Sequence record: PP952070.1
Direction: 5' to 3' (one strand)
Length of the DNA stretch: 53,660 nucleotides
DNA from: Staphylococcus phage Pel53
Below the pieces are notes generated by a model that had not been told where the DNA came from, made no database searches, and worked only from the letters and a program-made list of their open reading frames with translations. Of the stretch, positions 1 through 35,236 are shown in pieces. How positions within the stretch are numbered: the first letter of the stretch is position 1; every line of letters starts with the position of its first letter. A program made the position numbers and the translations under genes.

Positions 1-1449
1 ATGGCAATTCCAATTTCCGATATCATCCAGGTCAACATTGCGGTATCTCCAAACGCTGTTGCCGTGGAAGGTTTTGGTCCGCTCCTGTTTCTGAGCAAAG
101 ATTTTTCTCCGGCACCAGGTGAAACTGTTCCTGTGCGCCAATACACCAGCATGGCTGCTGTCTCTGCTGATTTCCCATCTGGTGAAATCTATCAGGCTGC
201 TCTGGCATGGTATTCTCAGAAGCCAACTCCGAAGTATTTCTTAGTGGGTGCTGTTACTAACGAAAGCACTACCCCAGCAACATCCGGCTCCGTGACTGCA
301 TCTGCTGCTGCAACTTTGGATACTATTAAGGCACTTACTAATGGTGTGTTGTCTTTGGAAATTGATGGCGTAGTTAAGTCTACTGCACCAATCAACTTCT
401 CTTCGGCTCTCGACTTTGATGCCGCTGCTTCTATGGCTAATGCTGCGTTCATTGCTGCCGGTATTCCTGCCGTAATGTCTCAAACCACTGGGACCTTTAA
501 AGTCACTGCCAACTCTGTTGGTGCCAACTCCATCATTAGCGATGTGTTTGGTACTGCTGCTGCGGCATTCAAATTAGATTCTGCCTCAAGTCCAGTATAT
601 GCACAAGGCACTGATGAAGTATCTATCGGCTCTGACTTGAACGCAATCTTGAACTCCACGTTCAACTTCTTCTTCGTTGCAATTGACCGCAAATATCGCG
701 GCAGTGCTTCTGGCGATGTTCAGATGACCGTTGCCAAGTGGGCAGAAGCAAACGAGAAAGTGTTTGGCTGGGCTGACAGCGATAAACAAATTCTGGTTCC
801 TGGTGCTGAGTCTAGCTTCAAGCGGGCTAAAGAACAGAACCTCCAGCGCTCCTTGCTGGTGTATGATGCCTCTGACAATGGTGACGAGTATCCAGAGATT
901 TCTATCCTGGGTCGTGCATCAACTGTCAACTTCAACGTTGCAAACTCTTCACTTGTCCTGGCATTCAAACAAGGTCCAGCTATTAAGACTGCTGACCTAT
1001 CTCCGAACCAACTCGCTGCACTTGAGCGTGTAAATGGTAACGCATTCATCAACGTTGGCGGGAACACTATGTTCTACAACGGCAAGATGGCTGACGGCAC
1101 TTGGTTCGATACCGTTCAGGGTGTTTCTTGGCTGACCGCTAAGATTCGTGCGAACGTATTCAACCTGTTCTACACCTCCACTACCAAGATTCCTTGGACT
1201 GAAACTGGTGTGGCTCTGGTAAACCAACAAGTAACTCTGGCTCTGGAACTGGCTGTGACCAATGGTCTGATTGCCCCAGGTTACGACAATGAAGGCACCT
1301 TCTATGCAGATGGCTACAAAGTCTTGTCTACTGACTTGGCTCTGATGCAATCTCAGAAAGGCGCTCGTATCTGGGAAGGTACTTCCTTCATTGCAATTGG
1401 CTCTGGCGCATTGCAGGGTGCAGTTATCTCCGGCAACTTCGTTCAGTAA
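1..1449 (+). CDS. putative contractile tail sheath protein
   Basis: 482-aa ORF starting at window position 1. It lies immediately upstream of a small tube-like ORF and the chaperone/TMP block (sheath-tube-G/GT-TMP order typical of myoviruses). Codon usage is host-preferred (ctg/cgt/ccg), as for abundant structural proteins. Confidence 0.55.
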   Translation: MAIPISDIIQVNIAVSPNAVAVEGFGPLLFLSKDFSPAPGETVPVRQYTSMAAVSADFPSGEIYQAALAWYSQKPTPKYFLVGAVTNESTTPATSGSVTASAAATLDTIKALTNGVLSLEIDGVVKSTAPINFSSALDFDAAASMANAAFIAAGIPAVMSQTTGTFKVTANSVGANSIISDVFGTAAAAFKLDSASSPVYAQGTDEVSIGSDLNAILNSTFNFFFVAIDRKYRGSASGDVQMTVAKWAEANEKVFGWADSDKQILVPGAESSFKRAKEQNLQRSLLVYDASDNGDEYPEISILGRASTVNFNVANSSLVLAFKQGPAIKTADLSPNQLAALERVNGNAFINVGGNTMFYNGKMADGTWFDTVQGVSWLTAKIRANVFNLFYTSTTKIPWTETGVALVNQQVTLALELAVTNGLIAPGYDNEGTFYADGYKVLSTDLALMQSQKGARIWEGTSFIAIGSGALQGAVISGNFVQ

Positions 1450-1460
1450 GGGTGCGATAA

Positions 1461-1916
1461 GTGAAACAATATTCTTTCTATAATACCGACCTCATTATCG
1501 ATGGTGCTCGTGTAGATGGTTTTACTTCTGGTAATGCCATCATCACGGCTCGTCGTAACGCACCTCAACACCTGCCTGTTATTGATGCATATGGTAAGTT
1601 GGCTGTGGCTACCACGGCTGACCTGTCTGGTACGATTACTTTCCCGCTTCTGCAAACCGCAGACTGGAACGAAATCCTGTACAACCGTGCTCAGTTAACT
1701 CAGGCAACTGGCCTGTCTGGCAACAAATCTCTGTGGCAACCGCTCCAGATTCAGATTGTTGACAAGATGGGTGATGTGCTGGTCAATGGTGTAAACGGCG
1801 CTATCTTGCAGCAACCTGCAATTCAGCGTGGCGTATCCTTCACGTCTAACGTGTGGGCTATCTTTGTAGAACGCCTCCAGATTAAGACTGGTTCTTATCC
1901 GGAAATTGGCGTTTAA
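1461..1916 (+). CDS. putative tail tube protein
   Basis: 151 aa, directly after the sheath gene and before the chaperone pair. Its size and position match P2 FII/Mu tube proteins. Confidence 0.5.
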   Translation: MKQYSFYNTDLIIDGARVDGFTSGNAIITARRNAPQHLPVIDAYGKLAVATTADLSGTITFPLLQTADWNEILYNRAQLTQATGLSGNKSLWQPLQIQIVDKMGDVLVNGVNGAILQQPAIQRGVSFTSNVWAIFVERLQIKTGSYPEIGV

Positions 1917-1928
1917 TTTGGAGTAAGT

Positions 1929-2387
1929 ATGGCTTGTGAATTGCTTCAACGTGAATTCACAAACTCCAAAGGTGAAACAGTGTTAGTCGTTGTTCGACAA
2001 TTGTCGGCTTCGGCTGCACTGTCTCTTCATGCGGAGTTGGTAAGCAAGGTTGGTTCTCGTGTATTCCCATTCATCGAAGGTAAATATAACTTCGCTGATA
2101 TTATATACTTGATGCAGCAAGTAGAGCATACCGTATTCACAGAATTGTTTAAGCGTGTTATCAGCATGCAATCGTCCAAAGATGGACAAGAAATCAAACC
2201 TGCATTATATGATATGCAGTTCAATGGCGAATTGATGTTGTCTTGCCACGTCTTTGCTTTCGTACTAGAAGCAAACTTCCTTGATTTTTTCAAGCAAGGG
2301 CTCGAAATCAACGAACAGAGACGGTTGGAGGCGGAGGAAGCATCCAAGCTGGCAGAGCAGAAGAATTCGAGTCCGGAGACAGTTTAA
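1929..2387 (+). CDS. tail assembly chaperone (G-like, zero-frame product)
   Basis: 152-aa ORF between tube and tape measure. It contains the slippery heptamer T TTT TTC (2285-2291) in the zero frame. Confidence 0.6.
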   Translation: MACELLQREFTNSKGETVLVVVRQLSASAALSLHAELVSKVGSRVFPFIEGKYNFADIIYLMQQVEHTVFTELFKRVISMQSSKDGQEIKPALYDMQFNGELMLSCHVFAFVLEANFLDFFKQGLEINEQRRLEAEEASKLAEQKNSSPETV

Positions 2388-2563
2388 TATCCCTGTTCCC
2401 AGACATAAAATATTTTCTGCATCGTCCTATAATCGAAGACAGTTCTCTCTGCAAATTATGTGAATTGCAAGATGGGACCTATTCGATTATGGACTTATTG
2501 TTATTCCATGACATTCTCGATTTGCGTAAGAAACTCGAACCAGTAGATGAAGACAATGGCTAA
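1929..2563 (+). CDS. tail assembly chaperone GT-like fusion via programmed -1 frameshift at 2285-2291
   Basis: After a -1 slip on T_TTT_TTC, the -1 frame stays open for 91 codons with no ATG start of its own and terminates at TAA 2561-2563, overlapping the tape-measure start (2547). This is the classic G/GT arrangement. Confidence 0.5.
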
Positions 2564-5500
2564 TCAAAAAGATTTAATGAAGTTGAGTGCTAATGAGTTA
2601 ATTGCATTAGGCTCTCAAAGCGGTCTAACATTCCATGCTGGTATGAAGAAGTCGCACATGGTTCAGCAACTTAGTGCGAGTGCTGCGTCAGGATGGATGG
2701 ATACAAATGCAGAATTAATGGGTGGGTCGTTTGAGGATGATAGTTTAATCACTGAATCCTTTGGTGACTCTTCCATGATTTCTGATGCTGCCCACATTGC
2801 TCAAATGCTTTCTGGTGCTGGCTATACAGAATCATTTCATAATGCAATGAACGGACCTCTTCACCATGTAGAGGCAATCAACACATACATGGAAAGGCTT
2901 GGTGTCAACACAGACGATGTGTGGATGCACATGCCAAAGTCCAATCCGAACTTGCCGCAAGGTAACTTCAACATGCTTAATGCCTACATGCGAGATACTT
3001 TGCAAGGGCATCAAGATATTATGCCAGAAATCCCAGGTCACTATGCTGGTAATATTATGGCTGAATACTCCACCAACCGTGGAAACATTGCCGATTCATA
3101 CAACTACATGGCTCACATGTATGTCGACCGTGAACAATATGGCAATCACGAACAATACGCAAGAGACATTAGTCGAGTTGCCAAACGTCTGGAACAAGAG
3201 TTGCCCTCAGCCTTTAAGGAAGTTGGGTACACCTCAGCCTCTAATGTAGGAAATAAATCGGCCCCACATATTTCGTACATGGATGCACTTCCTCAGATTG
3301 GTTCTCCCTCAATTGTTTCTGATATTGCACATCCTCGTGCCCCTCTTAACGCATCTGGACTTCCTCTTGGTTCGTTTGGTGGCGGCATTAAGGCTGAATA
3401 TTCCTTATCTGCATCCCTATCTGGTTCTCCCGGCTGGTCGGATGTAAGCAAGACACTCTACCAAGATGTTTCTGGCGTAGTTAAGTCTGTGGCAAAGGCT
3501 TATTCTGGTAGTGCTGAAAGAGGAATGAATGCACACCGCACCCAATTTTCTGACAGAGACTTGATTCTCGACTCTGCTTCTCGTTATGCAGACATTGCAG
3601 ATGTTCGTTCTGGGTACGACAACCTTAAGAAAGATATTGGTGACGACCCTCTCTACTCTGGTTCATCCATTCGTGGTGTTCTTGAGAACGCACACCAATA
3701 TAATGAAGCAGAAGTTTCTAGAATATTTGACCCTGCCGAGCGTTTAAGAAATACTGGACCTGCTGAACTTAGTACATCCAGTGAGTTTACGGCAAATTTA
3801 AATGAACCGACAAGTTGGAACTCTGCAAGAGATAGAAGAGAGTCTATTGCTATTGCAAATCTCGATAGTGCTAGCGTTGGACAGCCTAGTTCGGTTAAGT
3901 ACCATGATTCGCTCGAACAAGGTACGCAGGAGTGGCTTGATTTTCGTAAGCAGTATGATATTACTGGCTCTACTATTGGTGATTATTTGGGCCACAACCC
4001 CGCAACCAATAATAGCCCAATACATACAATGGGCGAAAAGATTGGCCTCACGGTAAGAAAGGATTCACCACGAGCGCGTGAGAACTTTGAGCGTGGTCAT
4101 AGATTAGAGGCGTGGGCCAGGCCCAGGGTAGGTGAACGGTATGGTGTTGAAATAGCTGAAACTGGTGCAATCACAAACGACAACTATCCTGGCATGATGT
4201 ACTCACCAGATGGATTAATTGGTGATGATGCTTTGTGGGAACATAAAGCTCCAAATAACTTTAAAGATTTGGAAACAACTCCAAACTACATGGACCAGAT
4301 GCAACTTGGTATGCATTTGAGTGGTCGTAGTCGCACACTGTTTACCCAAACTGTTGGCGAAGAATCCAGAAGTCAGTGGGTTGAAGCCGACCCAACGTGG
4401 TTTGAACGTAACAAGAACAAGATTGCATCTTCTCAAGCACGTATGAATGCTGGCCGCGAGTTTATGGAAAGCTCCGACCTTGAAGGCAAAGACCTTGTTA
4501 GTGAAACCCGCAAAGTTATGTCCGGTGATGGAATTTGGGGCTACCAGACTCGTGACCACAGGGAAGGTGAGGGATATACTGCTGGCAAGCGCGGGATGGC
4601 TAAATTTAGTGCCGCTGCTGGCACTGCCGATGACCCGTTTATTGGCTCCCATTCTTCCTACAACCCAGAAGCATCTCGCTCAGATTACCAATCAAACTCC
4701 CCAGCAACCACAGGGAATGGTGACACTGGTAATGATTCAATGGCACTGTCTGTTAAGAAAGGTATCCTTGCTGCTCAGGAAGAGAATAAGCAAAAGGGTA
4801 TTGGTGCAGATGCGGACTTTGATGGCAAAGCCGATTCAATGGGCTGGGACCGTGAAAGATTTGATGCTGCCAATGGTGGTGGGAGCGGTGGTGGTGGCGG
4901 TCGTGGTGGCCACTTTACAAGTGGTGGCAACTACTTTGATGACTACGGTCGTATGGGTGGTTCCTTAGCTGCTGGTATTGCTGGTGGTAGTATTGGTTCA
5001 GCATCCAACGGAGTTATGCAAGCATTGATGGCAACTCCTGCTGGACGTGTAGCTGCTGTAGGCATTGGTGCTATTCAGATTGGCAATGAAGCTGCTGAAT
5101 ACATGAATGACTTTATCGGCAACTCACTTGATGCAGGTGTGGCGAATCCTAACGAATACTCTTCTATGTCGCAGGGCTTGGAGATGTTGGGACTCAACTC
5201 ACAACAAGCATCACGTCTGAATCAAACCACACATAGTGCCTATAACACCATGCTTAACGGCGACCCTAGCGGCGCTGTGAACATTGTTCGTGGCAGTAGG
5301 GGATTGCTAACCATAGGTGATATTCGTGCGACAGGCGGCGACCCTGTGGCCCTGGCTCGCATTATGCAGGAAAGAGGCCAGGAGCGAGGGTGGAGTCAGG
5401 CCCGTATCGCAGGTGCTGCCGAAATGGCTGGCCTACAGGGAATGGCGCGAGCGTATGACCGCACGGAATACAGCCATGAGCAAGCTGGCTCGGTGGTAGA

Positions 5501-17229: not shown

Positions 17230-17540
17230 CGATTAAATGGGAGAAGAGATTCGATGCGTTAGCGTCGTTTCTCTTTGAGCTAGAATAAAATAAGTAAGTT
17301 TTCAATATTACTTATTCCCAATATTGCTACAATATTTAAAGTAATATTAGGAATGCGTAAAGTTCAAAACCAAATGGTACATGGTCGGTCAACTGTATCT
17401 AGACATAGACTCGTTCACAATCGGTCAGCTGTATCTAGCCGGAATTTGTTCGAACCCGTTACGAAGTAACAACAGAAGTCCGACTATGTTATAAAAAATT
17501 TTTATATAATTTTTTTTTAATTTAAATATTGTTACGGAAT

Positions 17541-17618
17541 TAATGAGACTCGAATTGTTTCAATATTAATGAGACTAGAATTGTAACGATATTGACGAGA
17601 CTAGAATTGTGGCAATAT
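17541..17618. repeat. three tandem 26-bp iterons TAATGAGACTnGAATTGTnnCAATAT preceded by an extreme A/T tract (17492-17530)
   Basis: Direct reading: aatgagactcgaattgtttcaatatt / aatgagactagaattgtaacgatatt / gacgagactagaattgtggcaatatt, contiguous with no spacers. Confidence 0.7.
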
Positions 17619-17790
17619 TATTTTTATTTTTGAGGTGGCGGGGAGGGGAAGCCCAACGTCCTATCGGACTTAAAATACGGTCCCTACCCCAACTTTTTCC
17701 TGTAGCCTATCGGCTTTCAAACAACACCAAGTTAGGTAGTGGGTCAAGGTCAAAGTCTCCGTGCTGTGCTAACAATGGCACAGGGTTGTG

Positions 17791-17810
17791 ATATTAGTTG
17801 GACGTGAATT
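17791..17810 (+). promoter_or_regulatory. phage-specific promoter-like motif (consensus ACATTAGTTGGAtgTGAA) upstream of RNAP gene
   Basis: atattagttggacgtgaatt. One of about 10 copies of the same motif, all on the + strand in intergenic positions 0-140 bp upstream of gene starts. Confidence 0.5.
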
Positions 17811-17874
17811 GTGTAATGGCTACGCTATTATAATCCGTTTCATTCAAATCATACACAATCTTGGAGACTTACAA

Positions 17875-19815
17875 ATGACTACTATCTCAACTCAAACTAT
17901 CAAATCTGTTGTTCCTGCTATCACTGCTCTGGTATACCGTGCCAAAGAGAAGCAGAACTATATGGTTCCACAGACTTGTGCTATTGCTGCCTTAGCCATC
18001 TTCAAGATGATGACGTCTTTCACACGTGATGACGTTATTCCTGCTATCTCGATGGTTGAACTGGCTTCTGCTTCTATTGCTGATGCCAACCGTTATAACA
18101 ACGATTTGAAATCAATGCACTATGTTGACCCAGCTATCAACCTCATTGGTTTAGCTAAGCACTTTGGCTTCATCACCATGAACGAAGACAAATCGTTCCA
18201 GATGACTGATGCATGGGTTGAACTGGTTACAACCAAAGATACCTCAGTTCCATTCACTGAGAAGGTAACAACTGAATCTCGTCGCAAGCCTTTCGTTAAA
18301 GGTGGCAAAGTTAAGCCATCCAAGACTCTGAAAGCTGCAATCGAATTCCTGCAAGATACTGAATATCACGTTGATGCAACAATGGTTAAAGTTATCTCTT
18401 CCATGTTAGAACAACGTACATTTGGTGGCTTACAGATGCCAGAAGCAATCCAGACTGAACTCCATGTTTGGAACAATGCTGTAGCAATGGTTGGGCAGGA
18501 CACTCTGTTCTCTGACTACTTTGCTGATAACCGTGGTCGTTTGTATCACGTAGCATGTGCTGGTCCTAACCCACAATCATCTGACTTTGCTCGTTGCTTG
18601 TATTCCCACAATGTTGAGAACACTGTGAGCAAGTTTAATGCTGATGGTTCAACAACTCTGGCATACAACATGTTCATGCTTGAGCTGGAAGATATTGCTG
18701 GTGGAGACTGGACTTCTGCAAAACGTTTAACTTATGTTGCACAGAATCCTGCTGGTTCTCTAGCTCGTATGCTGAATATGCCTAAAGGTGAGCGTCCTTC
18801 TAAGCCATTCACTTATGTTCGATTAGCTCTGGATTGGTTCAAGTTTGAGACTACAGGTGAGTGTGATTCTCGTGTAGGCTTTGGCTTAGATGCTAAATGT
18901 TCTGGTACTCAATATCTGGCATTCATTGCTGGTAATATGGAGATGGCTCGTGCAACAGGTCTGGTTGATTCTGAGACTAAAGCATCTGACCCATACCAGT
19001 TATCTCTTCGTGAACTGTTGAAGTTATTAGACCGTTCTTCAATGAAACCATCCGCTGAAATTATGGATGAATTCTTGAATCCGAAAGCTGGTCGTAAGTT
19101 TATCAAAACTCCATACATGGCTATCCAATATGGTGGTGGTAAAGCTGCATTAACTGGTTCTTCTGACTTCATTGCATACATGACAGAAGCTCTCCAGATT
19201 CCTATGGAGAAAGCTGATGCATTTGCTGAGCTTTGTGTTGAAGCAATTCATAACGCATTGGGTGAGAAGATTAACATGTTCATCGAGAAAGCTGCTGATG
19301 CTGCATACAATCGTTGTGTTGAACTCAACAAAGAGTATATCACCTATAAGCACACTGATGGTCAAGTTGTAATGAAGCCTTGCTTCCCATCTCGTGATGT
19401 TTGTGATGCATTCAGCATTCGTGTTGATTCTCAAACTCGTGTCATCTTTGGTCAGATTCAGGAGAATAGGCCTTGGACTATTCGTGAGTCCAATCCAACT
19501 AAAGAAGAATTCAAACGTACCTTCGTTGTTAACTACATTCAAGGTATTGATGCATTGGTTGCTCGTACTGTTGCAGTCAAAGCTAAAGAAGCTGGTCTTC
19601 GTGGCTTTACTTCAATTCACGATTGTTTCCGTTGCTGCTTAGCTGATGCTCCTCTCATGATGGAAGTGATTCGTTCTGCTTATATTGAAATCTTTGTTCA
19701 TAATAATCAGTTTGAATCTCTGTCTAAGCAACTTGGTGGCATCAACATGTACCATGAGAACATCGTAACAGAAGAGCTTCTGATGAGCGAACACGCTTAC
19801 TACTTCTGTCAATAA
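17875..19815 (+). CDS. T7-like single-subunit RNA polymerase, N-terminally truncated (about 646 aa)
   Basis: Motif A GLDAKCSGTQYLAF (T7 DGSCSGIQHF), motif B RKFIKTPYMAIQYGGG (T7 R..K....YGS), motif C TSIHDCF (T7 HDSFGT). ATG 17875 with RBS ttggagac. The track ORF starts further upstream at 17788 but lacks an RBS. Confidence 0.8.
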   Translation: MTTISTQTIKSVVPAITALVYRAKEKQNYMVPQTCAIAALAIFKMMTSFTRDDVIPAISMVELASASIADANRYNNDLKSMHYVDPAINLIGLAKHFGFITMNEDKSFQMTDAWVELVTTKDTSVPFTEKVTTESRRKPFVKGGKVKPSKTLKAAIEFLQDTEYHVDATMVKVISSMLEQRTFGGLQMPEAIQTELHVWNNAVAMVGQDTLFSDYFADNRGRLYHVACAGPNPQSSDFARCLYSHNVENTVSKFNADGSTTLAYNMFMLELEDIAGGDWTSAKRLTYVAQNPAGSLARMLNMPKGERPSKPFTYVRLALDWFKFETTGECDSRVGFGLDAKCSGTQYLAFIAGNMEMARATGLVDSETKASDPYQLSLRELLKLLDRSSMKPSAEIMDEFLNPKAGRKFIKTPYMAIQYGGGKAALTGSSDFIAYMTEALQIPMEKADAFAELCVEAIHNALGEKINMFIEKAADAAYNRCVELNKEYITYKHTDGQVVMKPCFPSRDVCDAFSIRVDSQTRVIFGQIQENRPWTIRESNPTKEEFKRTFVVNYIQGIDALVARTVAVKAKEAGLRGFTSIHDCFRCCLADAPLMMEVIRSAYIEIFVHNNQFESLSKQLGGINMYHENIVTEELLMSEHAYYFCQ

Positions 19816-19850: not shown

Positions 19851-19895
19851 GTGCATTAGTTGTTAATGAATTAAATCAAATTGGAGACTTTATAA

Positions 19896-20062
19896 TGTTT
19901 ACAGTGACCTTAGTAACCTATTACGGCAAGCAAGTTTGTGAGAAGTTTGAGACTTTAGCAGAAGCAAGAGCCTTTGCAGCTCGTGAAGAGAATATCTATG
20001 TAGAGTGTGAAATCACAGATGGTGACAAAGTCTACGATGTAGTTAAGCCTGAACTCCACTGA
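19896..20062 (+). CDS. small hypothetical protein (55 aa)
   Basis: ATG 19896 with RBS ttggagac. MFTVTLVTYYGKQVCEKFETLAEARAFAAREENIYVECEITDGDKVYDVVKPELH. Below the 60-aa track cutoff. Confidence 0.55.
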
Positions 20063-21160
20063 TTCCCAATATTCGGACAATATTGTTGCATGTAATATTG
20101 TCCCGATATTCGACATTAGTTGGATATGAAGTAACAGAATACGGAGAAGTATTCCGCATGTCATGTTGAAATCATTCTAGAAACATTTCAGCATGTCAAC
20201 TAAACACACAGCGTTGTAATGATGTGGCAATCATTGAACTCCCTGTCTTTGGCCGGACAAAGTTCCAGCAACCATGTGTGAAGTAGGAATATTATTCGAA
20301 ACTGTTCTTCAACCTAAGCATGTTCACTTGTTTCAATTGAGCTACATCTCCTATTATCAAGGCCCACCCACAAGCCGGGAGATAACTTTGGTAATATTGG
20401 AACTTTTGGACATGCTTCTTTCTTTCAATCAGAATTCGAAAGAAGAGAAGTGTCGGAGCAAAGCCTCTCGTTTTCACGCAGAAGCCGCCCCGATTTTGAG
20501 CAACAAATATTGTGGCAATATTGCTACAGTATGGCATGTAAATATTGCTACAAATTGGCATGTTAGAATGTGGCAGAATTGTTAGAGGACTAATCACCTC
20601 GAAGATACAATTGTCTACCAATCCGGCATGTTAATTTTGTAACAATATTTGTGCCAATTTCGCATGTAATAAATGTATCAATATTCACCCAATATTCTTG
20701 CAACCCGCATGAATACTGGCTTCCAGCCAAGCGAAGGCTTTATCATCGCATGTAAATATTGTGACAATATTGGGATAAAACCCTTTATTTATTTCTGTAG
20801 TTTTGTATTAAATGGTCGGTTTTCCGTACCTATTGCGCCACTTCTTGATGTGCCAAATACATTCCAAGATAGGAGCAAACCTGTAATTAATGATGCATGT
20901 TTGATTGTGACTAAATTCGTTCATTTGGCGGATGAATTGGTTGCAATTAAGCATGTCCATTTATCATTAGTTGCATGTGAATAAGACCAAATCTCTGTAA
21001 ATTCTGCTGAAATTGTGTGGCAGATTTTAGAGAGATTATGTCTCCAAGCTAATCATTGTAGTTTTCGACACTTGTTGTGTCACATACTCCCTACAACTTT
21101 AAGGTGGATTGAGGTAATACAGGACCTCCACAATCGTTCTGTAGGGAGTTTTCCCTTTAA
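20063..21160. repeat. ORF-poor repeat region with about 14 copies of GCATGT(A/T)A(A/T) and many CAATATTG palindromes
   Basis: Seen directly: ttgcatgtaatattg, ccgcatgtcatg, cagcatgtcaac, aagcatgttcac, ggcatgtaaatattg, ggcatgttagaatg, ggcatgttaatttt, cgcatgtaataaatg, cgcatgtaaatattgtgacaatattgg, tgcatgtttg, agcatgtccat, ttgcatgtgaat. Several resemble extended -10 elements (TGnTAATAT / TGTTAGAAT). Confidence 0.6.
20113..20131 (+). promoter_or_regulatory. phage promoter-like motif with no ORF for about 1 kb downstream
   Basis: acattagttggatatgaag. Next convincing gene starts at 21175. Confidence 0.45.
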
Positions 21161-21174
21161 CTTTGGAGAATAAA

Positions 21175-21423
21175 ATGAGTTCTATTACAAAGTTGGCAAA
21201 GTTTGCGGACTTACCTGATGGTGCAATCTTCACTCTGCGCTCTGTCAAGTGGATTAAAGTTAATGAATCAAAGCTGTACGATGCTGTAGGGCTGTTTGAT
21301 TCAAGTAAGGCATGTAATCTTGGTGCCAATACTATTGTAAGTATTGAAATTGAGTTAACTCACGATGATTCTGACTCTGAGGAATCATTCCGTAACCTGC
21401 CTGGATATAGTGAGGGCTTCTGA
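21175..21423 (+). CDS. hypothetical early protein
   Basis: ATG 21175 with RBS ctttggagaataaa. The track ATG at 21163 lies inside the RBS. Confidence 0.5.
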   Translation: MSSITKLAKFADLPDGAIFTLRSVKWIKVNESKLYDAVGLFDSSKACNLGANTIVSIEIELTHDDSDSEESFRNLPGYSEGF

Positions 21424-28767: not shown

Positions 28768-28787
28768 AAACATTAGTTGGAATTGAA
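28768..28787 (+). promoter_or_regulatory. phage promoter-like motif abutting ATG 28788
   Basis: aaacattagttggaattgaa. A weaker copy lies at 28627-28645 (aaacattagtgggatttga). Confidence 0.45.
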
Positions 28788-28964
28788 ATGATTAAAGTTC
28801 TGGAAAAAGATAACGTAACCTTCACACGCCAATGTGGGTTATGTTCCTCTGTTGTGTCTTATGTGTTCTCTGATTTAAAGATGCGCAAAGGAAAGAATGT
28901 TCGAGGATATTTCGCATACAGATTTATTTCATGTCCTGTGTGCAATACAGATATTCGACATTAG
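28788..28964 (+). CDS. 58-aa CxxC...CxxC zinc-ribbon protein
   Basis: MIKVLEKDNVTFTRQCGLCSSVVSYVFSDLKMRKGKNVRGYFAYRFISCPVCNTDIRH. Its stop TAG is embedded in the next promoter motif. Confidence 0.45.
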   Translation: MIKVLEKDNVTFTRQCGLCSSVVSYVFSDLKMRKGKNVRGYFAYRFISCPVCNTDIRH

Positions 28965-30178: not shown

Positions 30179-30670
30179 ATGTTAACACAATCCAGATTAA
30201 GGGAAGTTCTCATATATAACCTGGAGTCTGGACTGTTTACTTGGAAGATATCACTAAGATATGGTGATGCTGGAAAGGTTGCAGGAACTCTGGATAAAGA
30301 TGGCTACATAACCATAAGGATTGATGGCCGTCTATACAGGGCGAACAGACTTGCATTCTTATATGTCCTTGGAAGATTTCCAAACGGTGTTGCAGACCAT
30401 ATAGACCAAGTGGTTACAAACAATGCTTGGAATAATCTAAGGGAAGCAACCTGCGTAACCAACGGCTACAATAGGAAGAACAGTTCAAACAATACGTCTG
30501 GAGTAAAGGGCGTGTATTGGGACAAGGTTCGGAATAAGTGGGTTGCAAGAATTTCGGTGAACAAGCGAAGATTAGTTGTTGGTGAATTCAACAAACTATC
30601 TGATGCAGAGGCTGCAATAGTATCTGCGAGAAACAAATATCACGGAGAATTTGCTAATCATGGCCTTTGA
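30179..30670 (+). CDS. HNH homing endonuclease with AP2-type DNA-binding domain (paralog 1)
   Basis: DHIDQVVTNNAWNNLR...N (HNH core) and NSSNNTSGVKGVYWDKVRNKWVARISVNKRRLVVGEFNKLSDAEAAIVSARNKYHGEFA (AP2). Four paralogs in the window. Confidence 0.75.
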   Translation: MLTQSRLREVLIYNLESGLFTWKISLRYGDAGKVAGTLDKDGYITIRIDGRLYRANRLAFLYVLGRFPNGVADHIDQVVTNNAWNNLREATCVTNGYNRKNSSNNTSGVKGVYWDKVRNKWVARISVNKRRLVVGEFNKLSDAEAAIVSARNKYHGEFANHGL

Positions 30671-31911: not shown

Positions 31912-32370
31912 TTGAGTGGTGTTATCGAAGTGAATAAACAAACTGCATATAACATAGCCAAGATATCCAAAATGACTTGGTACAGACATAACCAAGGATA
32001 CTTCTTCAACCACATAACAACTGGTGGGAAGAGGTTTATGGTTATGCGGCATGTGCTAAACTTCTATATGGCACACGGCTGGATTCCAGATTTTGTCGAC
32101 CACATAGACAACATACCTGGCAATGACGACCCAAGCAATTTACGTGCTGCCACAAAGTCACAGAACGCACACAACTCCAAAGTGAGGTCAGACAACTCTT
32201 CTGGAGTAAAAGGTGTGAGCTGGAATAAACAGTATTCCAAGTGGTATGTGGAAGTTAAACTGCATGGTAAGAAGCACTTCGGAGGGAGATTCCTCGAACT
32301 TGCTGATGCCAAACGTGCGGTAGAAAATTTACGCAAATCGCTACACGGCGAATTTGCAAGACAGAAGTAG
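31912..32370 (+). CDS. HNH-AP2 homing endonuclease (paralog 2)
   Basis: DHIDNIPGNDDPSNLRAATKSQNAHN and NSSGVKGVSWNKQYSKWYVEVKLHGKKHFGGRF..AKRAVENLRKSLHGEFA. Confidence 0.75.
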   Translation: MSGVIEVNKQTAYNIAKISKMTWYRHNQGYFFNHITTGGKRFMVMRHVLNFYMAHGWIPDFVDHIDNIPGNDDPSNLRAATKSQNAHNSKVRSDNSSGVKGVSWNKQYSKWYVEVKLHGKKHFGGRFLELADAKRAVENLRKSLHGEFARQK

Positions 32371-34765: not shown

Positions 34766-35236
34766 ATGAACCGGAGTCCAACATTGACCAAGCTGTCCAA
34801 GAAGTTTGTGTTAGACTGTGCTGCAAAAAGGTTTGACCAAATCAATTGGACTTGCAGTGGCAGATATGCGAGAACGGCAATATACCTTGGTGGAAGACAC
34901 TACAGTGTATGTAGGCACGTACTTGTATTCTACATGCACACAGGAAAGGTTGTTGACAAAGTTGACCATATTGATGGAAACACCTTCAACGATGTTCCAG
35001 GCAATTTGCGGGAAGCAACTCAACTTCAAAATTGCCACAACAGAAAGATAAACTCCAACAACTCGTCCGGAGTCAAAGGTGTGCACAAAGATTCCAGAGG
35101 GAAATTTGTTGCAAGATTGCGGGTGGGAAATGGTAAAAGAATTTTCATAGGCAACTTCGATAAGCTAGAGGATGCCGAAATAGCTATTAACAAGGCCAGA
35201 ACATTATATCACGGAGAATATTCAAACAATGGCTAA
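34766..35236 (+). CDS. HNH-AP2 homing endonuclease (paralog 3)
   Basis: DHIDGNTFNDVPGNLREATQLQNCHN and NSSGVKGVHKDSRGKFVARLRVGNGKRIFIGNF..AEIAINKARTLYHGEYS. Confidence 0.75.
   Translation: MNRSPTLTKLSKKFVLDCAAKRFDQINWTCSGRYARTAIYLGGRHYSVCRHVLVFYMHTGKVVDKVDHIDGNTFNDVPGNLREATQLQNCHNRKINSNNSSGVKGVHKDSRGKFVARLRVGNGKRIFIGNFDKLEDAEIAINKARTLYHGEYSNNG

Follow-up and report, generated by a model that had tools for sequence, protein, structure and literature searches.

A conserved non-coding region between the RNA polymerase gene and the early genes of Chaseviridae phages most likely encodes a large structured RNA

The locus and its coding status

In this work we have analysed the region at positions 20063-21160 of a 53,660-nucleotide stretch of DNA, here called the window, which is recorded as Staphylococcus phage Pel53 (PP952070.1). 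To its left lie the gene for a single-subunit RNA polymerase (RNAP; 17876-19815) and a gene for a 55-amino-acid protein (19895-20062), whose stop codon directly adjoins the region. To its right is the first early gene (ATG at 21175), which opens a block of small early genes. A stretch of 1.5 kb that surrounds the region is 91.7% identical to Escherichia phage phiEcoM-GJ1 (GJ1), and the 78 phage records with sequence matches to it are all Chaseviridae or close relatives. Because of these two results we assign the genome to Carltongylesvirus and, judged by these matches, the window is a circularly permuted assembly of a genome of this genus (Chaseviridae, phiEcoM-GJ1-like).

A gap of 1.0-1.35 kb free of open reading frames (ORFs) follows the RNAP gene in every genus examined, including the other subfamily. 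In the records of phiEcoM-GJ1, Mangalitsa, SA91KD, flopper and 4HA13 this gap is unannotated save for two 'putative phage promoters', and in our window the lowest GC content, 0.356, is reached at 20501-21000. The region has two ORFs of 103 amino acids on the + strand, which the initial annotation had considered spurious, and one of 109 amino acids on the - strand. This view of the two ORFs was correct: all three are broken by stops or frameshifting indels in 12 of 12 relatives, including genomes that are about 90% identical, which rules out a coding reading. The region is non-coding and, since the ORFs are broken in every relative, the hypothetical proteins annotated there in some records are spurious. 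Known RNA families and tRNAs were also considered and Rfam and tRNA scans found none; the Rfam search gave no match at the gathering score, only two chance microRNA hits with E ~0.4. No tRNA gene was detected in the whole window, and phiEcoM-GJ1 and ST32 are reported to have a tRNA-Arg.

Predicted folding of the proposed sense-strand RNA

We consider that the region most likely encodes a sense-strand RNA, about 1 kb long and heavily structured, in which conserved hairpins follow one another in the order A-B-C-D-E-H-F-G. The key to this structure is a short word. As RNA, GCAUGU is self-complementary, forming the pairs G.U, C-G, A-U, U-A, G-C and U.G, that is, four Watson-Crick pairs and two terminal G.U pairs. 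The direct GCATGT repeats of the + strand therefore act as inverted repeats in the transcript, where they close long hairpins. A second pairing, of AAUAUUG with CAAUAUU, is predicted in hairpins D and E.

The stability of the predicted fold was compared, as minimum free energy, with that of dinucleotide shuffles. The + strand from 20128 to 21120 (993 nt) folds at -308.9 kcal/mol against -233.0 +/- 7.7 kcal/mol for the shuffles (z = -9.8), while coding controls fold at z = -0.8 and -1.1. Under RNA parameters the - strand reaches -274.1 kcal/mol (z = -5.4) and is thus 35 kcal/mol weaker, but the strands come out equal when DNA parameters are used (-138.2 and -137.2). As the asymmetry is present with RNA parameters and absent with DNA parameters, it comes from the G.U pairs, which make up 37 of the 327 predicted pairs. 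Z-scores in 200-nt sliding windows blur this signal, because hairpins of 90-120 nt get cut.

The same was found in six relatives from both subfamilies, in which the + strand gave z-scores of -4.0 (Y2), -6.1 (PM1), -8.9 (4HA13), -8.3 (Myduc), -6.6 (PVN02) and -6.8 (VPs20). Their - strands were 39-105 kcal/mol weaker, that of Myduc having z = +0.7, so that under RNA parameters the + strand is the more stable one in seven of seven genomes. When these seven were folded independently, 4-8 of the 9-13 GCAUGU words in each paired with one another, at homologous positions. The leader of the RNAP gene (17700-17899) is also strongly structured, on the + strand only, with z = -5.3 vs -1.1 for the - strand.

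Hairpins, covariation and a loop-loop contact

All the elements described below lie on the + strand. Domain A (20133-20306) is a multi-branch fold built from minimum-free-energy helices. It holds an 11-bp hairpin between two GCAUGU words (20162-20195), a hairpin with the stem AAUGAU/AUCAUU and four compensatory pairs (20218-20235) and a further hairpin at 20236-20265. In hairpin B (20317-20416) the GCAUGU at 20318 is paired with ACAUGC at 20410, and its apex, UCCU[AUUAUMAA]GGC[CCnnnCACAA]GCCGGGA, is invariant. The apex and architecture are common to 10 genomes of six genera with unrelated outer stems, and at the pair beside UCC/GGA we saw all of C-G, G-C, U-A and A-U. In Myduc the hairpin-B module is present in two tandem copies (2785-2960 and 3003-3178), both within the terminal repeat. 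The next two elements come from the minimum-free-energy fold: hairpin C (CUUCUUUCUUUC / GAAAGAAGAGAAG; 20417-20448), which is the last element within the terminal repeat, and hairpin D (AUAUUGUGGCA / UGCUACAGUAU; 20507-20532), which is made of AAUAUUG-type words.

Hairpin E (20533-20655) has a conserved apex, GGAYUAAU..CGAAGAU. RNAalifold pairs its GCAUGU at 20558 with the GCAUGU at 20626, and AAAUAUUG at 20540 pairs with CAAUAUUU at 20643. This word-to-word pairing was found in seven of seven genomes folded. In nine genomes 95.4% of the cells were paired, compared with 26-42% in slid controls, and eight pairs showed double changes; the covariation score of 0.297, against 0.161, was reached by none of 500 shuffles.

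Hairpin F (20882-20975) has about 40 bp, and in it GCAUGU 20895 is paired with GCAUGU 20951. Its 20-bp core contains six G.U pairs and its apical loop is AUUUGGC (20923-20929). RNAalifold returned no structure for this block, which is poorly aligned, and the hairpin was therefore assessed from per-genome folds and from an alignment trimmed mechanically to exactly 7 nt on either side of the invariant apical loop. In this alignment 96.4% of the apical stem was paired, all seven of its pairs had double changes and covariation was 1.18 against 0.32, again reached by none of 500 shuffles.

Hairpin H (20843-20869) carries the loop GCCAAAU at 20852-20858. This loop and that of hairpin F are exactly complementary, and the two change together. 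PM1 and Okapia have GCCAAUU with AAUUGGC, two metagenomic contigs have GCCGAAU with AUUCGGC, and in another metagenomic contig each loop is one base shorter (GCCAAU with AUUGGC); there is an additional G.U variant. This indicates a kissing interaction of 5-7 nt between the loops of H and F. Since the loop-loop contact covaries, which neither operator DNA nor simple processing hairpins would give, it argues for a specifically folded RNA.

The last part of the chain (20984-21149; z = -4.3) is a structured leader of the first early gene and consists of hairpin G (20984-21043), a small hairpin at 21067-21081 and a long one at 21086-21149. It contains an invariant CUCCAA (21041-21046), for which pairing with UUGGAG, the Shine-Dalgarno sequence at 21163-21168, is predicted. 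Taken together, the comparisons demonstrate a non-coding region with a conserved, sense-strand-specific structure, covarying helices and one tertiary contact.

Repeat words and their conservation

The region contains 12 copies of GCATGT on the + strand, one on the - strand and one GCATGA, together with 13 of AATATT, eight of AATATTG and seven of CAATATT. The initial annotation had counted about 14 GCATGT-type words, which agrees with this; its claim of at least nine CAATATTG cores holds for the AATATT core but not for the full 8-mer, which has only three copies. It had also noted that the CAATATT core recurs upstream of the RNAP gene, and we found seven copies there, at 17303-17619, beside 15 at 20067-20772. 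The enrichment statistics which it proposed show that the words are locally saturated and that they differ over the genome as a whole. GCATGT is not enriched (36 observed vs 39.7 expected), but 13 of these 36 crowd into 20088-20978, 1.7% of the window, with 12 of the 13 on the + strand. For CAATATT 11.1 copies would be expected and 37 are present, a count that none of 100 shuffles reached. The two half-words form a 17-bp palindrome, AATATTG-N3-CAATATT, of which there are 24 copies with three or fewer mismatches (5.0 expected), 14 of them in the two clusters and seven with at most one mismatch.

An alignment of 13 genomes from four genera was used to measure conservation. The whole kilobase is conserved across these genera and the words are kept in position; at 20156, 20534, 20558, 20626 and 20895 all 13 genomes have an unchanged GCATGT. 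The initial annotation had suggested comparing the repeats with the interspersed sequence in relatives, and the repeats are indeed the better conserved: among genus representatives column identity was 0.89 for GCATGT, 0.77 for the palindrome half-sites and 0.68 for other columns. In the other subfamily the oriented word is GTATGA(GAC) in place of GCATGT.

Two further features involve these words or their surroundings. Between the stop codon of the 55-amino-acid gene and the promoter motif P1, described below, an inverted-repeat search found an imperfect palindrome (20058-20120, + strand) with 27-nt arms and four AATATT boxes around the GCATGT at 20088; it is 79% similar to 17310-17348 across 42 nt. 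At 20775-20815 (+ strand) there is a linker rich in A/U, about 40 nt long and predicted to have little structure, which is A/T-rich in every genus although its sequence itself is not conserved, and which is flanked by the conserved blocks AATATTGTGACAATATTGGGA and ATGGTCGGTTTTCCG. A block containing GGTCGGT (ATGGTCGGTCAACTGTATC, ATGGTCGGTTTTCCG) occurs at 17381-17400, 17418-17436 and 20813-20826, on both sides of the terminal repeat in all genera. It includes TGGTC, which we take to be a recognition word of the T7 primase type.

Phage promoter motifs, the terminal repeat and the left cluster

The region has two copies of a predicted phage-RNAP promoter motif, both on the + strand. P1 (CATTAGTTGGATATGAAGTAAC; 20113-20134) is the presumed start of the structured RNA and P2 (CATTAGTTGCATGTGAATAAG; 20964-20985) is contained in the 3' arm of hairpin F. 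ATTAGTTG, which forms the core of the 'phage promoter' of GJ1, is present in 14 copies against 2.7 expected, all on the + strand, including those at 20115 (P1) and 20966 (P2). The records of GJ1 and SA91KD list P1 among putative phage promoters, and the motif is conserved in four genera; the copy reported at 20113-20131 by the initial annotation is real. Another copy of the motif, at 28772-28790, ends about 8 nt before an ATG without a Shine-Dalgarno sequence, which suggests a leaderless or near-leaderless mRNA for the 58-amino-acid ORF at 28788-28964.

According to the ICTV, the international body for virus taxonomy, Chaseviridae genomes are linear with terminal repeats of about 3 kb. Mapped repeats extend over 1..3234 in Mangalitsa (PhageTerm on a TruSeq library, 1,333-fold coverage), 1..3120 in 4HA13 and 1..3202 in Myduc, and the records of Y2 and PM1 carry both repeat copies, from which boundaries were read directly (2,608 and 2,665 bp). 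These five phages agree on the boundary to within about 10 nt. By homology with them we infer for our window a direct terminal repeat of about 2.79 kb that carries the RNAP gene, with its left boundary at 17664-17670 (CCTATCG|GAC) and its right boundary, which would be the right physical end of the virion DNA, at 20450-20459 (GTGTCG|GAG). The right boundary falls about 390 nt into the region, in the linker that separates hairpin C from hairpin D and is less conserved than the rest of the region (conservation 0.49-0.61). A YCGGR motif is common to both boundaries across genera (in 4HA13 CGGAC|TT and CCGGACA|TT), which hints at one sequence-specific cut at both ends of the repeat. The published boundaries of PYps23T (1 and 2339, corresponding to 17805 and 20123 in the window) lie inside two promoter-motif copies which share ATTAGTTGGA; in the five other phages the left end lies about 140 nt, and the right end about 330 nt, further out. 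PYps23T may differ in reality or its boundaries may be a junction artefact at the 10-nt microhomology, and because the five others disagree with it we treat it as an outlier.

Just left of the terminal repeat is a companion cluster (17303-17670, + strand) with AATATT palindromes, tandem units and a sigma70-like promoter. The promoter (17592-17621, + strand) consists of TTGACG, an 18-nt spacer and TATTAT, and is the only strong one. It scored 11.2, in the top 0.01% of the genome; this value, like the 8.3 and 8.8 given below, depends on a weight matrix with hexamer frequencies from the literature. Three 26-nt tandem units (AATGAGACTnGAATTGTnnCnATATT) at 17525-17619 overlap this promoter, and the ATGAGAC in them resembles GTATGAGAC, a word repeated in the equivalent gap of Nefertitivirinae phages. 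A stretch of 33 nt of this promoter region is 79% identical to 20491-20522, just right of the repeat. The promoter is situated about 45-75 nt left of the inferred left repeat end. Because it is outside the repeat, the copy of the RNAP gene at the left virion end would lack this promoter, and promoter and gene would be joined only in the right-end copy or when the genome is circularised or concatemeric. High-scoring sigma70-like sites are also present in antisense, on the - strand (20136-20199, 20628-20657 and 21055-21083; scores 9.2-11.6). Two of these, at 20194-20199 and 20628-20633, are produced by GCATGTCAA / GCATGTTA when read as the reverse complement (TTGACATGC, TAACATGC), and the site at 21055-21083, the one checked in relatives, is not conserved as a promoter.

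Discussion

The initial annotation offered several readings of this region and listed a template for a long non-coding RNA last. This is the reading which our results support best, through the z-score of -9.8, the strand bias, the covariation and the kissing loop. It had not seen that the repeats are base-pairing partners or that the end of the terminal repeat is inside the region. The element is best described as a new, family-specific large structured RNA, or RNA leader, which straddles the inner end of the terminal repeat. Its distribution fits this description: the core motif of hairpin B was found in 15 IMG/VR stretches (51-57 kb contigs or fragments) and 10 metagenome contigs, only in Chaseviridae-like sequences, and not once in 185,579 bacterial and archaeal genomes.

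How might such an RNA be made and processed? We propose that transcription by the phage RNA polymerase begins at P1 and continues across the region and into the early genes. Since P1 would then be an active promoter for a polymerase reading into these genes, the RNA would be a leader of at least about 1,050 nt; a start at P2 would give a shorter leader, which is structured too (z = -4.3). RNase III cuts long, near-perfect duplex RNA, and the helices of F (about 40 bp) and of E and B (about 30 bp with internal loops) are of the length that it takes, at least about 20 bp. Perhaps the near-perfect helices of 30-40 bp in F, E and B are cut by the host enzyme to yield a stable structured RNA and a trimmed early mRNA. 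Finally, the anti-Shine-Dalgarno CUCCAA may gate the translation of the first early gene.

Several observations weigh against the structured RNA or against parts of this scheme. Palindromes abound in the DNA itself, whichever strand is folded (with DNA parameters z is about -5 to -6), and cruciforms or protein sites are possible there as well. AATATT palindromes also fill 17303-17619, upstream of the start site of the host promoter, and this cluster is not strongly structured. Minimum-free-energy folds of 1-kb RNAs are unreliable in detail, and comparative support is limited to the hairpin at 20218-20235, hairpins B, E, F and H and the kissing loop. The proposed RNase III cleavage and anti-Shine-Dalgarno control are drawn from the general properties of the enzyme and from invariant columns, and no covariation was seen in the pairing of CUCCAA with UUGGAG. 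P1 is only a motif, because the ICTV gives the promoters of the Chaseviridae polymerase as not identified, and in the literature we found no transcriptome, transcript or non-coding-RNA paper for any member of the family. Lastly, GCAUGU is invariant and not merely paired. Pairing alone leaves this invariance unexplained, which suggests that something reads the symmetric GCAUGU:GCAUGU duplex.

Could the repeats act as DNA instead? The leading idea of the initial annotation was a bank of strong host sigma70 early promoters like A1-A3 of T7. There are four TGnTAnnnT matches on the + strand, and in the promoter that precedes the RNAP gene AATATT is probably a -10 element. But sigma70 prediction gave no + strand site in the region above coding background: the maximum there is 8.3, the level of the RNAP coding sequence, and coding DNA reaches 8.8. 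A site scan found 10 sites where shuffles predict 14.1, there are no -35-like elements, and TGTTAGAAT, which of all the words looks most like a promoter (an extended -10), changes to TGTTGGAAT (G at -11, with the A lost) in the close relatives GJ1, SA91KD and flopper and to TGTAAGAAT (T at -12 lost) in 4HA13 and PM1, from other genera. We therefore regard such a bank as highly improbable. Sigma54, CRP, ArcA, TyrR, Fur, LexA and DnaA-box readings were checked by eye against consensus sequences and none fits in spacing. An operator array, with the 17-bp palindromes on either side of the terminal repeat as binding sites for a dimeric DNA-binding protein of the phage or the host that controls both the host-type promoter of the RNAP gene and P1, has more in its favour and is a possible, if somewhat doubtful, explanation. 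It would account for the enrichment and clustering of the palindromes given above, for the site at 17603-17619, which falls between -35 and -10 in the one strong sigma70-like promoter, and for the two sites which end 4 nt before P1, and half-site deviations are uncompensated within a site. However, the ten small neighbouring proteins (that of the 55-amino-acid gene and nine early ones) have no Pfam DNA-binding domain and belong to PHROGs families that are functionally uncharacterised. In Loessnervirus the left cluster uses GATTCG while the right one keeps AATATT, the AATATT words of the region are predicted partners in hairpins D and E, and the strand bias of GCATGT and the G.U asymmetry would go unexplained. 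An operator array could coexist with the RNA, and since the left cluster repeats the 17-bp geometry and one palindrome overlaps the host-type promoter, a DNA-binding regulator is still plausible.

The location of the region raises two more possibilities, a replication origin and a packaging element. In T7 the primary origin is directly after the RNAP gene. An origin of this type would be primed by RNAP transcription from P1 or P2 through the A/T-rich tract, with the structured RNA as a pre-primer like ColE1 RNA II. The layout of such an origin is found here: the phage promoter, the A/T tract of about 40 nt at 20775-20815, whose composition is conserved and which lies between conserved blocks, the position directly after the RNAP gene as in T7, and a T7-like replisome (a primase-helicase with Toprim and DnaB_C, a family-A DNA polymerase and a 5'-3' exonuclease). 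TGGTC follows the tract on the + strand. Nevertheless, structure and conservation reach well past the tract both ways, T7 manages at its own origin without a structured RNA, and GC skew gives no information in the region; we think this role unlikely. Alternatively, the arrays at both boundaries could be terminase or pac-type elements for packaging and terminal-repeat processing, comparable to the arrays of short repeats next to the terminal repeat of T7, with RNAP from P1 helping to trigger cutting. The right boundary is inside the region in five phages, related clusters are just outside both boundaries and YCGGR is present at each (CCTATCG|GAC on the left, GTGTCG|GAG on the right). A precedent is the T7 RNAP-lysozyme complex, which pauses at the concatemer junction to start packaging (PMC3276506). 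Yet the boundary is the least conserved segment, the arrays run 500 bp past it with GCATGT words on either side, and the RNA-specific covariation would have no explanation, which makes a packaging element quite unlikely. The operator, origin and packaging readings are not mutually exclusive with the structured RNA. Amid the replication module of the window there are also three HNH_3 homing-endonuclease-like genes (30179-30670, 31912-32370 and 34766-35236), one with an AP2 domain.

What, then, could the structured RNA do? We rate any one particular downstream function much lower than the RNA itself. Perhaps it belongs to an unrecognised, Chaseviridae-specific family of large phage RNAs that act mechanically, through their fold, at the end of the genome, although this is a speculative idea that we would not expect to prove right. 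A candidate for such a role is a pRNA-like or cage-like assembly through H-F contacts between molecules. Other candidates are a transcript through which the phage RNA polymerase is linked to packaging and to cutting of the terminal repeat, one through which it is linked to replication priming, or a decoy for a host nuclease or defence system that recognises double-stranded RNA, through the invariant GCAUGU:GCAUGU duplexes.

A 1-kb gap which is blank or filled with spurious ORFs in GenBank records thus gains a testable identity. It may hold a new RNA family of about 1 kb with a kissing loop, found in both subfamilies, absent from Rfam and bacterial genomes and accessible in a tractable coliphage host. 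The element is a target for the study of early expression, of the start of replication and of terminal-repeat formation in a family under development for the biocontrol of E. coli, Erwinia, Pectobacterium and Aeromonas. A more general lesson is that strand-biased direct repeats can be RNA inverted repeats if the word is self-complementary through G.U pairs.

The element has something in common with several known systems. T7-like phages have structured early leaders and RNase III sites (R0.3, R1.1 and others), which are isolated hairpins of about 60 nt. They share with our region a single-subunit RNAP, long non-coding hairpins ahead of or between the early genes and helices of a length for RNase III, but the structure described here is contiguous over about 1 kb, has invariant loops and a covarying kissing loop and shows no sequence or Rfam similarity. 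The GOLLD, ROOL and HEARO RNAs, large structured non-coding RNAs of phages and prophages, are, like this one, several hundred nucleotides or more in length, phage-borne and strongly conserved in structure, with loop-loop contacts. In contrast to them, the present RNA has no match to those Rfam families, has a fixed locus between RNAP and the early genes, is split by the boundary of the terminal repeat and is probably continuous with mRNA. The pRNA of phi29 is likewise encoded by a genome end and has two loops with covarying complementarity, which serve ring formation; it is, however, a 120-174-nt RNA of a protein-primed phage without homology to ours, and the H-F contact could form within one molecule or between molecules. 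With ColE1 RNA II and the T7 origin the region shares a promoter-driven transcript by an A/T-rich tract, placed after the RNAP gene as in T7, and in ColE1 a folded RNA is needed for priming; unlike in these, the structure continues downstream of the tract. Finally, T7 has short repeats left and right of its terminal repeat and T5 a non-coding repeat region at the inner end of its own. In these phages as in the Chaseviridae, a direct terminal repeat with the earliest genes on it is bordered at its inner edges by non-coding, repeat-rich DNA. What sets the repeats described here apart is their RNA-specific, G.U-dependent pairing and covariation.

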